DNA of 64,000 bases from Escherichia coli O127:H6 str. E2348/69 (lineage in GTDB: Bacteria > Pseudomonadota > Gammaproteobacteria > Enterobacterales > Enterobacteriaceae). Of this stretch, positions 1 through 6,173 are shown piece by piece. A program made the translations under genes and the position numbers. Each line of letters opens with the position of its first letter. Within the stretch, counting starts at the first letter, position 1. Below the pieces are notes generated by a model that saw nothing but the letters and a program-made list of their open reading frames with translations, was not told the DNA's origin and ran no database searches. Where the stretch lies: assembly GCF_000026545.1 (NCBI RefSeq), contig NC_011601.1. One strand, given 5' to 3'.

Positions 1-206
1 AAGAAGAATAGTGCTCATAACGACCTACGTTAATTACCTCATTGACGGCATGAAGTGTATCAAAATGAAATGAACAGGATATGTGCGACCACTCACAAAT
101 TAACTTTCAATACTTTCCATGGCATCGTCACCACAATTAAATACCTTTAAGTATCAACAAGTTAAAGTATGAAAATCAGCATAAACCCTGATTTTTGTCA
201 AAAAAA

Positions 207-551
207 ATGACGGGGATAACCATATTTTATGGCGATAACATCATTCGTTATGTGGTTAATACAAAAAAGGGGCTGAGACTATATTTCAAGCAATTACCGG
301 ATAATTACCAGGCAAAATTTGAGTTAAATTTAATGAGTAAGTTCTCAAATTTTATTATAAACAAACCATTTTCAGCGATAAATAATGCGGCACGTCACAT
401 TTTTTCACGCTATTTGTTGGAGAACAAACATTTATTTTATCAATATCTTAAAATTTCGAATACAGGTATTGATCATCTCGAACAATTGATTAACGTCAAC
501 CTTTTCTCTTCTGACAGAATGTCATTTTGTGAATGCAATCGTTTTCCATAA
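207..551 (+). CDS. Hypothetical protein, about 114 aa from ATG at 207 (118 aa if TTG at 195); Asn/Ile/Phe/Lys-rich, in an AT-rich segment; function unknown
   Basis: Open frame in the ORF track; no recognisable family; AT-rich codon composition unlike neighbouring core genes; no obvious strong RBS. Confidence 0.3.
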   Translation: MTGITIFYGDNIIRYVVNTKKGLRLYFKQLPDNYQAKFELNLMSKFSNFIINKPFSAINNAARHIFSRYLLENKHLFYQYLKISNTGIDHLEQLINVNLFSSDRMSFCECNRFP

Positions 552-1069
552 ATTCTTCTCCCCTCATAGGCAACGAATAGCATTTTGTGTTGAGGATCAC
601 AAAACGAATAATTGCTGGTCGCCGCGATAAGGTCAGACGAAGTCAACAAGGAGGATTTTCGCTGTGCTTTACATCAGCGTAGGCCATAGAATGTTGCTTC
701 GTTGACTGTAATGCCGGGTAAATGAGCATTTTTTGATAGTGCGAAAGAACCCTGCGAGGAAAATAAGCATCTATTATTGTTTGTCATGATGACAAGGCAG
801 GCATCAATGAAAGGCTTCTCAATTGCACATATTTTTCACTCTTCAATGCACGCAGTGGTTAACAATCACAATAGAAATATTGATTATTGGACGGTAAAAA
901 TTTAGGTTATAACGCCCAAATGATTCAACGATCGGACAATACCTGCGAACTTACAATTAATGAGAGAAATATATGTATAATTACGACCTTTTAAATGCAA
1001 TATAGACTTAATAACTTCTTACAAAGTCTGTTATTAATACCGTAGATATTCATCTTACCCTGGGCACCA

Positions 1070-1099
1070 AAAGCAAAAACCCGCCGAAGCGGGTTTTTA
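1070..1099 (-). terminator. Rho-independent terminator of rnpB (GC hairpin cccgccgaagcggg followed by a U-run on the minus-strand transcript)
   Basis: Hairpin plus A-run on the plus strand immediately 3' of the RNase P RNA end. Confidence 0.7.
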
Positions 1100-1107
1100 C
1101 GTAAATC

Positions 1108-1484
<377 letters not shown>

Positions 1485-1491
1485 GGCGCGC

Positions 1492-1520
1492 AGTATAGAG
1501 GGTTTGCGCGCCCTTGTCAC
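1492..1520 (-). promoter_or_regulatory. rnpB promoter: -35 GTGACA, 17-bp spacer, -10 TATACT, GC-rich discriminator GCGCGCC before +1 G
   Basis: Hexamers read directly on the minus strand upstream of the mature 5' end; overlaps the 3' end of garK. Confidence 0.55.
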
Positions 1521-2662
1521 CCCGCGTTGCGCATTCCAATCGCCAGTGTCGCGGCGATATTACGTGAAGCACGGCAGATATTGTCATAAGCTCCGCGGAG
1601 TGCTTCGTCTAACGTACCAATGCTGGTCAGTACGCTGAAGACCGCATCAATGCCATGCTGATGTACAACGCCAACATCATTGGTCAGGCTACCCGCAATG
1701 CCAATCACCGGTTTATGGTACTTCTTCGCCACGTTTGCGACACCAATCGGTACCTTGCCGTGAATACTCTGGCTATCAATACGCCCTTCACCAGTGATCA
1801 CCAGCGTACAATCGTGAATATGTTCCTCCAGATTCAGCGCCGTAGTGACGATTTCAATACCACTTTTCAGTTCTGCACCAAGAAACGCCATCAGCGCCGC
1901 GCCCATACCGCCCGCAGCTCCTGCGCCGGGGACATCTTTCACATCAACATGCAGCGCTTTTTTAATGACATCGGCATAGTGAGAGAGGTTATTATCCAGC
2001 TCGACAATCATCGCCTCACAGGCTCCCTTTTGTGGGCCAAAGATGCGCGAAGCACCACTGTCGCCGACTAATGGGTTGGTGACATCACAAGCGACGCGGA
2101 TGACACAATCTTTTAAGCGCGGATCGAGACCGGAAATATCAATATCATTCAGAGTATTAAGACTACCGCCGCCAAAACCAATTTCATTGCCGTTGGCATC
2201 GCATAATTTCGCCCCCAGCGCCTGTACCATGCCTGCGCCGCCGTCGTTGGTGGCGCTGCCGCCAATGCCGATAATAATGTTTGTCGCACCGCTCTCCAGC
2301 GCCTGCAGGATTAACTCACCAGTACCGCGTGAAGTGGTCACGAGTGGATCGCGTTTTTTCGCAGGTACCAGTTCCAGCCCACTGGCCGCCGCCATTTCGA
2401 TAAACGCGGTTTTGCCATCGCCGGAGATCCCCCAACTGGCATTCACTTTCTCGCCCAGCGGCCCTGTAACCCAGGCGTGACGTTCAGCCCCCTGGGTGGC
2501 TGCAATCATCGCTTCCACCGTTCCTTCACCACCGTCGGCAACCGGAACAGAAACATACTGTGCATCAGGAAAAATTTCCCGAAATCCTTTTTCTATCGCC
2601 TGCGCAACCTCGCTGGCAGATAAACTTTCTTTATAAGAGTCTGGGGCGATTACGATTTTCAT
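1517..2662 (-). CDS. garK: Glycerate 2-kinase (381 aa)
   Basis: Translation from MKIVIAPDSYKESL matches recalled GarK; the track ORF (408 aa) has a 27-codon upstream extension that I reject. Confidence 0.9.
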   Translation of the reverse strand: MKIVIAPDSYKESLSASEVAQAIEKGFREIFPDAQYVSVPVADGGEGTVEAMIAATQGAERHAWVTGPLGEKVNASWGISGDGKTAFIEMAAASGLELVPAKKRDPLVTTSRGTGELILQALESGATNIIIGIGGSATNDGGAGMVQALGAKLCDANGNEIGFGGGSLNTLNDIDISGLDPRLKDCVIRVACDVTNPLVGDSGASRIFGPQKGACEAMIVELDNNLSHYADVIKKALHVDVKDVPGAGAAGGMGAALMAFLGAELKSGIEIVTTALNLEEHIHDCTLVITGEGRIDSQSIHGKVPIGVANVAKKYHKPVIGIAGSLTNDVGVVHQHGIDAVFSVLTSIGTLDEALRGAYDNICRASRNIAATLAIGMRNAG

Positions 2663-2758
2663 ACCTATGCCTGTTACCACATGACGCCGGAGGGCGTTTC
2701 TCTTATTCGGCCTGGATTCCAGGCCCGGATTGCAATACGCCATCCGGGCACGACGTCA

Positions 2759-3643
2759 TTAGCGAGTAACTTCGACTTTCGCCAGTTTTTCGTAGTAGCA
2801 CGCCAGGGCGCTATGATCCGCCGTTCCTAAACCATCTGCACGCAGTGCCTGCATCATCTCCATAACCGCAGCTGTGAGCGGCAGTTGCGCGCCGACGCCG
2901 TGAGAAGTATCCAGCGCATTCGCCAGATCCTTAATATGCAGATCAATACGGAAGCCCGGTTTGAAGTTGCGGTCCATCACCATCGGCGCTTTGGCATCCA
3001 GCACGGTACTGCCCGCCAGCCCACCGCGAATTGCCTGATACACCAGATCCGGGTTAACGCCCGCTTTGGTTGCCAACGTTAACGCTTCTGACATCGCAGC
3101 AATATTCAGCGCCACAATGACCTGATTTGCCAGTTTGGTGACGTTACCTGCACCGATTTCCCCGGTATGCACCACGGAACCCGCCATCGCTTTCATCAAA
3201 TCATAGTATTTGTCGAAAATAGCCTTGTCGCCGCCCACCATCACTGACAGCGTACCGTCGATGGCTTTCGGTTCACCGCCGCTCACCGGGGCGTCCAGCA
3301 TATCAATGCCTTTCGCTTTCAGCGCTTCGCTGATTTCACGGCTTGCCAGCGGTGCGATAGAACTCATATCAATCAATACCGTACCTGGCTTCGCGCCTTC
3401 AATAATGCCATTCTCACCCAGCGCCACCTCTTTCACATGAGGGGAGTTTGGCAGCATGGTTATGATGACGTCGCACTGTTCAGCGATCGCTTTAGCCGTA
3501 GAGGCTGTTTCTGCACCTGCAGCAATCACGTCAGCGATAGCTTCTGGGTTACGGTCAGCAACCACCAGCGAGTAACCTGCTTTCAAAAGGTTTTTACTCA
3601 TTGGTTTACCCATAATCCCAAGGCCAATAAAACCAACTTTCAT
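2759..3643 (-). CDS. garR: 2-hydroxy-3-oxopropionate (tartronate semialdehyde) reductase (294 aa)
   Basis: Translation MKVGFIGLGIMGKPMSKNLLKAGY with a Rossmann GxGxxG motif; start chosen at the internal Met to give the recalled 294 aa. Confidence 0.88.
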   Translation of the reverse strand: MKVGFIGLGIMGKPMSKNLLKAGYSLVVADRNPEAIADVIAAGAETASTAKAIAEQCDVIITMLPNSPHVKEVALGENGIIEGAKPGTVLIDMSSIAPLASREISEALKAKGIDMLDAPVSGGEPKAIDGTLSVMVGGDKAIFDKYYDLMKAMAGSVVHTGEIGAGNVTKLANQVIVALNIAAMSEALTLATKAGVNPDLVYQAIRGGLAGSTVLDAKAPMVMDRNFKPGFRIDLHIKDLANALDTSHGVGAQLPLTAAVMEMMQALRADGLGTADHSALACYYEKLAKVEVTR

Positions 3644-3678
3644 AGTCATATCAATCATCTCTCTTATTGCGGTGGTGG

Positions 3679-4449
3679 TTATTTTTTAAAGGTATCAGCC
3701 AGTTTCTGAGTGGCAGAGCGGAAGACGCCGAGATCGCTGCCGACGGCCACAAACGTCGCGCCCCATTCCAGATAACGACGCGCATCAGCCTCGACTGGTG
3801 CGAGGATGCCGCTGGGTTTGCCGTGCGCGCTGGCACGGTTAAAAATGTGCTGAATTGCTTTTTGTACATCCGGGTGCGAGGCATTGCCGAGATGGCCTAA
3901 TGCCGCAGCCAGATCGCTGGGGCCGACGAAGATGCCGTCTACACCTTCGGTAGCGGCAATAGCATCGACGTTATCTACGCCCTGCTGACTTTCTATCTGG
4001 ACCAGAATAGTGATGTTCTTGTTCGACTGAGCGAAATAATCCGCCACGGTGCCAAACATATTGGCGCGGTGAGAAACGGAGACGCCGCGAATGCCTTCCG
4101 GTGGGTAACGAGTTGATGCCACCGCCTGCTCTGCTTCCTCTTTTGTTTCTACAAAAGGAATCAGGAAGTTATAGAAACCGATATCCAGAAGACGCTTAAT
4201 AATTACCGGCTCGTTGGTCGGCACTCGCACTACTGGCGCGCTGGCGCTGCCTTTCAGGGCCATTAACTGCGGAATAAACGTGGAGATATCGTTTGGCGCA
4301 TGTTCACCATCCAGCACCAGCCAGTCAAACCCAGCCAAACCAAGAACTTCAGTGCTAATCGGGTTAGAGAGAGCTGACCAGCAACCAATTTGTACCTGTT
4401 TCGCAGCCAGTGCGGCTTTGAATTTATTCGGGAAAACATCGTTATTCAT
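3679..4449 (-). CDS. garL: 5-keto-4-deoxy-D-glucarate (2-dehydro-3-deoxyglucarate) aldolase (256 aa)
   Basis: Translation and length match recalled GarL; position in the garPLRK operon. Confidence 0.92.
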
Positions 4450-4464
4450 CGCTTATACCTTTGC

Positions 4465-5799
4465 TTATTTCTGCAATTCCATACGTTTAATGTCGCCGAC
4501 TACGAAGAGGTAGCAGACCATCGCCATCAGCGCTGAACATCCCACAAAAACCAGTGCTGCATTGAAGGAGTGCAGTTCACTTACCAGGTAGCCAATCACC
4601 AGTGGAGTGACAATGGAGGCAACATTGCCAAAGACGTTAAAGACGCCGCCGCAGAGGCCAACAATCTCTTTCGGCGCGGTGTCAGAAATCACTGGCCAGC
4701 CCAGCGCACCAAATCCTTTGCCAAAGAAAGCCAGCGCCATCAGCATGACCACCAGCGTGGTGTTGTTGGTGTAGTTACATAAGATGATGGTGGAAGCCAG
4801 CAACATTCCCAGCACAATCGGTAGCTTACGTGCCAGGGTCAGGGACAAACCGCGTTTGATCAGATAATCCGAGAAGACACCTCCCAGCACGCCGCCCGCA
4901 AAGCCACACAGTGCCGGAATCGAGGCGACCAGACCCACTTTCAGAATCGACATGCCTTTTTCCTGCACCAGATAAATTGGGAACCAGGTGAGGAAGAACC
5001 AGGTGATGGTGTTGATAAAATATTGTCCGAAAAATACGCCCAGCATCATGCGGTTAGAGAGCAATTGCTTGATGTAATGCAGTTTGGGACCGCTTGCTGC
5101 CGCACTGCCCGGCTTTTTGTGGTCCATATCGACCACCGCGCCATTTTCTGAGATAAACTTCAGCTCTTCCGCAGACATACGTGGGTGATCTGTCGGGTTA
5201 TGAATCAACTTGATCCACAGCGCCGTCAGCACAAAACCAATCACCCCCATAACGGTGAAGACGTGCTCCCAGCCCCAGGCGAAAGTCAGCCAGCCAAGCA
5301 GCGGCGAAAAGAGCGCCAGCGAGAAATATTGCGCCGAGTTAAAGATGGCGGAGGCAGTACCACGTTCTTTCGTCGGGAACCAGGCGGCGACAATACGGGC
5401 GTTCGCCGGGAATGATGGCGCTTCCGAGAATCCCAGCATAAAGCGCATAAAGAACATGGAGATCCCTGCCCAGGCCAGCGGGAACATATCAACAAAGCCT
5501 TGCAGGAAGGTGAACAGCGACCAGAAAAAGAGGCTGTAGGTGTAAACTTTTTTCGAGCCAAACTTATCAAGCAGCCAGCCGCCGGGAATTTGCATCAGCA
5601 GGTAGGCCCAGCCAAAAGCGGAGAAGATGTAACCCATCGAAACCGCACTTAACTGCAACTCTTTTGCCACTTCGGTACCAGCAATAGACAGCGTTGCACG
5701 ATCGGCGTAGTTAACGGCGGTAACAATAAAAATAATCAGTAATATTAAATAGCGGGTATGCACGCCTTTCTTTTTTTCGTCAACGGTGTCCAACATCAT
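4465..5799 (-). CDS. garP: Galactarate/glucarate/glycerate MFS transporter (444 aa)
   Basis: Multi-pass membrane protein translation; length and operon position match GarP. Confidence 0.9.
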   Translation of the reverse strand: MMLDTVDEKKKGVHTRYLILLIIFIVTAVNYADRATLSIAGTEVAKELQLSAVSMGYIFSAFGWAYLLMQIPGGWLLDKFGSKKVYTYSLFFWSLFTFLQGFVDMFPLAWAGISMFFMRFMLGFSEAPSFPANARIVAAWFPTKERGTASAIFNSAQYFSLALFSPLLGWLTFAWGWEHVFTVMGVIGFVLTALWIKLIHNPTDHPRMSAEELKFISENGAVVDMDHKKPGSAAASGPKLHYIKQLLSNRMMLGVFFGQYFINTITWFFLTWFPIYLVQEKGMSILKVGLVASIPALCGFAGGVLGGVFSDYLIKRGLSLTLARKLPIVLGMLLASTIILCNYTNNTTLVVMLMALAFFGKGFGALGWPVISDTAPKEIVGLCGGVFNVFGNVASIVTPLVIGYLVSELHSFNAALVFVGCSALMAMVCYLFVVGDIKRMELQK

Positions 5800-6173
5800 T
5801 TTATTTACCTCGGGTACTTATGCTGATTTTTATTATTATGGGGAAGGTGTTATTTATGAGTTTCATTTATGCCGTTACGACAATGAACTCGGGAATTAGT
5901 ATAAGCAGCGCGATAATAATAATCATTGTGCAAATGCTAATTTAATTAGTACTATTTAAATATTATTTTGAGCATATGCACATAAGGTTGCGCGCTAAAG
6001 CACAGATTTGCGCTTTACCTTGCCGGGCGGCACTGTAATCCCTGAAATGATTGACATTGATCACATTTCTTCATTTAAACTCCTGACATTCTTATTTCAC
6101 CCAATGAAGTTATTTATTTTTAAATGAGACCAGGTCCTCATTTTAATAGTCCCTGGCTGGAGAATATTGCACA
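5800..6173. promoter_or_regulatory. Divergent garP / garD control region (AT-rich, 374 bp)
   Basis: Long AT-rich intergenic region between divergently transcribed garPLRK and garD; individual sites not resolved by eye. Confidence 0.4.

Follow-up and report, generated by a model that had tools for sequence, protein, structure and literature searches.

The tdcA-rnpB interval of Escherichia coli E2348/69: tdcR, deletion scars of yhaB and yhaC, and a single predicted rnpB terminator

Introduction

The closest described counterpart of the region examined here is the tdcA-tdcR-yhaB-yhaC-rnpB interval of E. coli K-12 MG1655 (b3118-b3123), in which the genes, their order and their orientation are the same as in E. 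coli O127:H6 E2348/69. In MG1655 yhaB and yhaC are both present, and a tandem array of a 113-bp unit (3.5 copies, 96% matches) overlaps the 3′ end of rnpB; yhaC and an array of about 113 bp at rnpB were what the first-pass annotation of the E2348/69 sequence had expected of K-12, and correctly so. Reed and Altman reportedly described, in 1983, 113-bp repeats flanking the M1 RNA gene on its 3′ side. TdcR is annotated as a transcriptional activator, and according to accounts of the work of Schweizer and Datta in 1989 and of Hagewood et al. in 1994, tdcR is said to have acted in trans from a plasmid.

Genome-scale studies have touched the same interval from three sides. A Footprint-seq preprint assigns to yhaB a 'novel CRP site' for which it estimates a Kd of 3.8 nM (PMC12871828, Table 1), an FNR ChIP-chip study lists 'yhaB' as a target together with a 24-mer (PMC1802558), and yhaB-yhaC has been classed as a young operon of phylostratum 9 (PMC12218254).

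The DNA considered here is a window of 64,000 nucleotides of the E2348/69 chromosome, of which the first 1107 are at issue; these match the E2348/69 genome at 100% identity. The strain belongs to phylogroup B2. With a probability of about 0.92, bases 1-1107 are the tdcA-tdcR-rnpB interval of E2348/69, from which yhaB and yhaC have been deleted. Nothing in it is new or unusual: it consists of tdcR, the deletion scars of yhaB and yhaC, and a single rnpB terminator, and it lies in a published genome that annotates it correctly.

Layout of the interval

The low GC content that first drew attention to this segment is real: in 300-bp windows it lies at 0.30-0.41 across bases 1-1200, against 0.50-0.63 in most later windows. 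The interval may be divided into three parts, namely a tdc control region (1-615), which precedes the tdc operon and is conserved and AT-rich by ancestry, a stretch that changes in length between lineages (616-1072), and the predicted rnpB terminator (1073-1100). In the RefSeq record of E2348/69 the first six codons of tdcA, which encodes a LysR-type activator and is the first gene of the tdc operon, occupy 1-18 on the minus strand, the gene starting at 18 (ATG, complement of 16-18). The divergent tdcA-tdcR control region at 19-332 was characterized by pattern search and multi-genus alignments. At 333-551 on the plus strand lies tdcR (72 aa, WP_012579004.1), followed at 552-806 by tdcR-yhaB intergenic DNA that BLAST against K-12 and outgroups also finds in K-12. 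The class A RNase P RNA gene rnpB fills 1108-1484 on the minus strand, as given by RefSeq and by Rfam RF00010, whose model matches from position 1 to 367 of 367 with 319.7 bits (gathering score 100), and garK, garR and garL come after it in the RefSeq record.

On the plus strand an open reading frame at 195-551 exists as originally described, with 118 aa from TTG 195 or 114 aa from ATG 207, and the stretch of about 550 bp behind it is indeed without a sizeable ORF, none longer than 58 aa being found on either strand between 552 and about 1107. The product had been considered impossible to place in any family, which was wrong. The 118-aa product scores 173 bits on the TdcR equivalog NCBIfam NF008507 (PRK11424), for which the cutoff is 100, with profile positions 1-72 of 72 aligned to residues 47-118, and RefSeq annotates tdcR in the same place. 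Its position is also that of tdcR in K-12, divergent from tdcA and upstream of the tdc operon. The 'unrecognised' ORF at 195-551 is tdcR with an upstream extension. Other resources are silent on it: with Pfam the 118-aa ORF gives nothing significant (top match DKNYY, E = 0.098), PHROGs returns no match for TdcR, YhaB or YhaC, and the AlphaFold2 model of TdcR reaches a mean pLDDT of 48 from a 5-orthologue alignment too shallow to inform it.

Two CRP sites at fixed spacing and the status of tdcR

The pattern TGTG-N7-TCACA occurs at two places in the 64-kb window, both of them near-consensus CRP sites and both in this interval: TGTGCGACCACTCACA at 82-97 and TGTGTTGAGGATCACA at 586-601. The site at 82-97 is presumably the one that belongs to the tdc promoter. 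That at 586-601 is identical in sequence to the CRP site that the Footprint-seq preprint assigned to yhaB (PMC12871828). Inside the tdcR ORF, an FNR-box-like sequence at 481-504, with TTGATTAACGTCAA at 486-499, differs by one mismatch from the 24-mer of the ChIP-chip target (PMC1802558). Multi-genus alignments further reveal conserved DNA blocks in the control region at about 186-206, 215-239 and 284-296, for which we infer a regulatory role.

The distance between the two CRP sites is 504 bp here and 503-507 bp in 20 other spacers, and it is fixed even in genera whose intervening sequence barely aligns. From the second site to rnpB, the distance is 506 nt here and ranges from 63 to 535 nt across species. 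No ORF on either strand is common to these genera that might explain the fixed spacing, and inspection by eye found no convincing conserved -10 element at the second site on either strand. It may be observed in passing that tdcR, near-neutral as a protein, lies nonetheless between two CRP sites held at conserved spacing.

The evolution of tdcR is unlike that of its neighbor. Between E. coli and other Escherichia its dN/dS is 0.38-0.84 (0.38-1.12 over all computable pairs), against 0.009-0.032 for tdcA in the same genomes. Variable columns are spread evenly over the three codon positions of tdcR (28/27/28 of 72, six sequences), unlike those of tdcA (8/6/115 of 312, five sequences), and 11 tdcR alleles within E. 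coli carry 14 nonsynonymous and 3 synonymous changes, approximately the neutral expectation. The frame is also broken in several ways. The start codon is ATA instead of ATG in E. albertii and Citrobacter, the tdcR of SCPM-8794 contains an in-frame stop, PGAP calls a pseudogene in strain AVS0750, and the Ser25-to-stop allele of that strain (TCA to TAA, window position 406) is matched exactly by a 61-nt probe in 558 of the 5426 complete E. coli genomes. Taken together, the sequence evolution of tdcR argues for what would be a very weak constraint at the protein level.

From this a different account of tdcR can be drawn, namely that it is not maintained as a coding gene and would be either a by-product of a length-constrained tdc cis module or a young, barely constrained peptide. 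Besides the substitution patterns and the broken frames, this account has in its favor that the ORF is not shared across genera and the spacing from CRP site to CRP site nonetheless is, and that sites for FNR and CRP are situated within the tdcR ORF or next to it. The main evidence against it is the activity in trans attributed to plasmid-borne tdcR; moreover, the frame of 72 codons is open and free of indels in four Escherichia lineages, and the blocks HLFYQY and SFCECNRF are invariant in the protein. A literature search for evidence of tdcR translation returned nothing relevant. On balance the account is possible, at somewhat below even odds.

The fixed spacing of the CRP sites combined with the weak constraint on tdcR suggests a DNA module, and not a protein, as the unit that is conserved. 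Stated in full, and tentatively, the proposal is that the approximately 0.5 kb between the CRP sites would be an ancient, length-constrained tdc cis module of Escherichia, Citrobacter, Enterobacter, Lelliottia and Pseudocitrobacter, in which tdcR would be an Escherichia-only, near-neutral ORF, broken in roughly 10% of the E. coli genomes sequenced, and not a conserved activator. If this is true, the CRP site assigned to yhaB belongs to tdc control or to some minus-strand transcript, and not to yhaB. The lead is modest, and it is relevant to studies of tdc regulation and of the CRP regulon: a textbook activator gene appears to be under almost no selection at the protein level, in DNA that keeps its CRP sites about 504 bp apart across genera.

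Deletions in yhaB and yhaC relative to K-12

BLAST against MG1655, expressed in the coordinates of the K-12 locus (L003), resolves the segment into four colinear pieces. Bases 1-900 correspond to 1049-1957 of the K-12 locus at 94.8% identity and comprise the start of tdcA, the control region, tdcR, the intergenic DNA and yhaB codons 1-34. Bases 901-963 correspond to 2685-2747 (93.7%), that is, nucleotides 270-332 of yhaC; bases 962-1096 to 3560-3698 (89.9%), the 3′ end of yhaC and its downstream flank; and bases 1067-1500 to 4176-4609 (99.8%), the last repeat unit and rnpB. Missing here are three segments of the K-12 locus: 1958-2684 (727 bp), 2748 to about 3560 (about 812 bp) and about 3684-4180 (about 497 bp). 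The first two absences take out most of yhaB and yhaC, and the third takes out the REP cluster and the repeat array.

What is left of the two genes lies on the plus strand. A 5′ remnant of yhaB with 31 codons, recognized as a pseudogene by PGAP and in the alignments, occupies 807-899 and carries a further 9-bp deletion that is absent from K-12 and from other collapsed alleles. An internal yhaC fragment follows at 901-963 (902-964 in the PGAP pseudogene annotation), and a 3′-end remnant of yhaC, whose start is set by the K-12 alignment, at 962-1005 with the TAG stop at 1003-1005. In place of intact yhaB and yhaC frames there are fragments of 93, 63 and 44 nt only. As for the products in K-12, YhaC scores 887 bits on the YhaC family NF007262 and yields no more than sub-threshold hints of pentapeptide repeats in Pfam (E = 0.14). 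A weak NCBIfam match of YhaB to Bud32 was dismissed (16.5 bits, cutoff 125).

We infer the following order and mechanism. Two internal deletions would have fused yhaB codon 34 to the 63-bp piece of yhaC, and this in turn to the yhaC 3′ end; the two junctions display little or no microhomology. The third junction, found by junction alignment in the yhaC-terminator spacer (1006-1072), lies inside CCAAAAGCAAAAAC at 1067-1080, a 14-mer common to the degenerate distal copy and the rnpB-proximal copy of the K-12 repeat, and it therefore fits recombination or slippage between direct repeats.

The first two junctions are common in the species. A 206-nt probe (870-1075) that spans both and ends inside the shared 14-mer is matched over its full length in 1062 of 5426 complete E. 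coli genomes (19.6%); in other genomes it matches only piecewise within yhaC. The third junction was seen as a single piece in a single place in six sampled genomes with the collapsed allele. Of the 5426 genomes, 5370 contain bases 1-900, tdcR included, with a coverage of at least 80%. The 113-bp unit of K-12 varies in number: it matches between 1 and 9 places per genome across E. coli, and a near-complete extra copy is found in 3649 genomes. Among the 5395 genomes with a match to the unit, 1746 (about 32%) have no place covering at least 80% of it. Among the matches listed, these genomes without an extra copy match only 54-62% of the unit, which amounts to the rnpB end and the terminator. The 113-bp repeat is a copy-number-variable locus, and its single-copy layout is common, since about one-third of the genomes lack an extra unit.

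The comparison could also be read in the opposite direction: the compact layout would be ancestral, and K-12 would have become longer when yhaBC was inserted and the repeat expanded. Several relatives are compatible with this. The distance from the second CRP site to rnpB is only 63-105 nt in Enterobacter, Lelliottia and Pseudocitrobacter, Salmonella and C. werkmanii have one copy of the terminator, and E. whittamii, E69 and SCPM-8794 are devoid of yhaBC. Against it stand the three colinear yhaB/yhaC fragments found here at 90-95% identity, including the internal 63-bp piece of yhaC. Because a lineage that never had the genes cannot yield fragments of them, an ancestral compact state is viable for the copy number of the repeat only, and as an explanation of the whole layout it is unlikely. 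Judged from the alignments, the segment is the remainder after deletions and not an acquisition.

rnpB, its terminator and the 113-bp repeats

Transcription of rnpB on the minus strand is predicted to end at a single Rho-independent terminator at 1073-1100. A terminator scan places it 8 nt past the end of rnpB, read from 1100 to 1073, with a 12-bp stem that includes 6 GC pairs and is GC-rich in its core, capped by a UUCG loop and followed by the U-rich tail TTTTGG; RNA folding agrees with the scan (-26 kcal/mol, z = -3.1), and an A tract on the far side makes the terminator look two-way. Just upstream of rnpB a promoter-like site, recognized by consensus match, extends from 1520 to 1492 on the same strand (GTGACA, 17 nt, TATACT; 10 of 12 consensus matches). 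When Rfam was run on bases 1-3000 at E values up to 1, RNase P was the sole family found, together with sub-threshold matches that correspond to the terminator hairpin and were rejected as an additional RNA family.

The single-copy state of the terminator motif is supported by a search of the whole window, in which CCCGCCGAAGCGGGTTTTT occurs once, at 1080-1098, even when 3 mismatches are allowed. Tandem Repeats Finder likewise detects no repeat in bases 1-1600. The first-pass annotation was right on both points. A K-12-type array, defined by at least two head-to-tail copies of the 113-bp unit, is not present here. In a Tandem Repeats Finder comparison of relatives, E. whittamii proved to have 2.2 copies and SCPM-8794 3.2 copies of a 118-121-bp unit in tandem, and no array was found in E. 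albertii, E69, Salmonella arizonae or C. werkmanii. Since arrays are patchy among relatives, the single-copy state of the repeat could be old and not the result of a collapse. A literature search on the rnpB repeats returned nothing relevant.

Extent of tdcR and origin of the AT-rich DNA

The start of tdcR in RefSeq is at 333 (72 aa) and not at 195 or 207. That the longer form of 114-118 aa is the true gene product is highly improbable. The frame is open from 195 in E2348/69 and K-12 alike, against which the plus-strand extension (195-332) is interrupted by stops in E. albertii, E. whittamii, E69 and SCPM-8794, that is, in all the non-coli Escherichia sequences, and in Citrobacter. These stops are the reason why the extension is not regarded as conserved coding sequence. 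RefSeq and the NCBIfam profile both use 72 aa, and the extension overlaps the DNA blocks at 215-239 and 284-296 that are kept as far as Citrobacter and Enterobacter and look more binding-site-like than codon-like.

The origin of the DNA itself was approached through relatives: a conserved 26-mer from rnpB, scanned in genome contigs, gave 120 Enterobacterales loci. In Escherichia, Citrobacter, Enterobacter, Lelliottia, Pseudocitrobacter and Superficieibacter, tdcA adjoins rnpB. Bases 1-615 align to C. werkmanii at 67% and, at 78-82%, to four other Escherichia lineages, E. albertii and E. whittamii among them; homology to the other Escherichia species stops at about 615. The GC content of the tdcA-rnpB spacer is 0.36 here and 0.33-0.40 in 16 other spacers from six genera. 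As the orthologous spacer is equally AT-rich in all genera checked, AT-richness is ancestral. Horizontal acquisition of bases 1-615 is refuted by this ancestral composition and by the synteny in Escherichia and Citrobacter.

Least credible of all is the initial reading of the segment as strain-specific or horizontally acquired DNA with a novel gene, for which the low GC, an ORF without significant Pfam or PHROGs match and the young yhaB-yhaC operon (PMC12218254), absent from three other Escherichia lineages, might have spoken, against the near-universal presence of bases 1-900 in E. coli, the synteny of bases 1-615, a spacer equally AT-rich in genera that have no tdcR ORF, the identity of the ORF as tdcR, and a loss of about 2 kb relative to K-12 with nothing gained. 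Nor are the marks of a genomic island found: in place of extra DNA with signatures of mobility or insertion there is about 2 kb less than in K-12; no integrase or transposase ORF, no tRNA and no flanking direct repeat is present; and the composition does not depart from that of the orthologous region in relatives.

One part of the initial reading survives. The layout is lineage-specific and departs from K-12 in being without yhaB, yhaC and the array; the notion of acquired DNA fails on the colinear yhaB/yhaC remnants and on the near-universal tdcR. If any DNA was once acquired, it may be yhaBC, most of which E2348/69 has lost: E. whittamii, E69 and SCPM-8794 have no yhaBC, only a 5′ piece of yhaB exists in E. 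albertii, and the operon has been classed as young, so that the possibly acquired DNA is the very part mostly lost here. The first-pass annotation would have taken the segment as ordinary had the ORF aligned to YhaB or YhaC and had K-12 displayed the same single-copy layout. Taken literally, neither is the case: the ORF shows no alignment to YhaB or YhaC, and K-12 has more than one copy. The locus is ordinary for another reason. More generally, horizontal transfer is poorly supported by low GC and an unfamiliar small ORF beside a landmark gene; here a regulatory spacer owes its AT-richness to ancestry.

Comparison with described systems

The difference from K-12 comes down to a common deletion allele of two genes without assigned function and to variation in the copy number of a long-described repeat. 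Compared with the 113-bp repeats attributed to Reed and Altman, the rnpB-adjacent unit is kept in E2348/69, where it comprises the final ~50 nt of the rnpB gene together with the terminator hairpin and the motif CCAAAAGC, and there are no extra copies. The spacers of Enterobacter, Lelliottia, Pseudocitrobacter and Citrobacter differ from that of E2348/69 in having neither a tdcR open frame nor yhaBC remnants, and in the distance from the second CRP site to rnpB, which is 63-105 nt in the first three genera and 277-409 nt in Citrobacter as against 506 nt here. In other respects they are as here: AT-rich, with two CRP-type sites 503-507 bp apart, conserved blocks on the side of tdcA and a single rnpB terminator.

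Conserved CRP site spacing in the tdcA-rnpB spacer

A pattern search across the 64-kb window retrieved only two CRP-type sequences (TGTG-N7-TCACA), at 82-97 (site 1) and 586-601 (site 2), which lie 504 bp apart. This distance is 503-507 bp in 20 other tdcA-rnpB spacers of Enterobacteriaceae, and despite such constancy no ORF common to the genera was found in the spacers compared. Site 2 corresponds to a novel CRP site that has been assigned to yhaB and whose Kd is estimated at 3.8 nM (PMC12871828), and it is kept in genera that lack yhaB.

Length variation between site 2 and the rnpB terminator

In the tdcA-rnpB spacers compared (from loci L004-L123), the part that varies in length runs from CRP site 2 to the rnpB terminator (window 602-1072). 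In Enterobacter, Lelliottia and Pseudocitrobacter this stretch spans 63-105 nt; the non-coli Escherichia have 183-535 nt here, and K-12, in which it contains yhaBC, REP elements and repeats, has about 2.6 kb. E2348/69 carries a collapsed allele, in which yhaB-yhaC is mostly deleted relative to K-12, and its yhaB remnant (window 807-899) shows an extra in-frame 9-bp deletion (CCCGYCAAT) that is found neither in K-12 nor in other collapsed-allele genomes (L124 and L125, 807-908).

Tandem arrays related to the 113-bp unit of K-12 occur downstream of rnpB in E. whittamii (L104; period of 121 bp, 2.2 copies) and in ‘E. coli’ SCPM-O-B-8794 (L029; period of 118 bp, 3.2 copies), and the repeat therefore extends to Escherichia lineages beyond E. 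coli. A second AT-rich trough (GC 0.34) is present at window positions of about 5700-6150, farther into the gar gene cluster.

Evolution of tdcR

The tdcR gene (window 333-551) shows a near-neutral pattern of change. In comparisons of E. coli with other Escherichia, dN/dS is 0.38-0.84 for tdcR and 0.009-0.032 for tdcA, with tdcR substitutions affecting the three codon positions about equally (28/27/28). Of the changes seen among E. coli alleles, 14 are nonsynonymous and 3 synonymous, and the start codon has been lost in E. albertii. At codon 25 (window 406), strain AVS0750 (L125) has a TCA-to-TAA nonsense allele, flagged by PGAP as ‘internal stop’, and an exact 61-nt probe for this allele finds matches in 558 of the 5426 complete genomes of E. 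coli. Judging by their strain names, several carriers may belong to ST131.

The tdcR ORF also encloses an FNR-box-like sequence, TTGATTAACGTCAA, at window 481-504. An FNR ChIP-chip target named ‘yhaB’ has a predicted FNR site (PMC1802558), from which this FNR-box-like sequence differs by one base.
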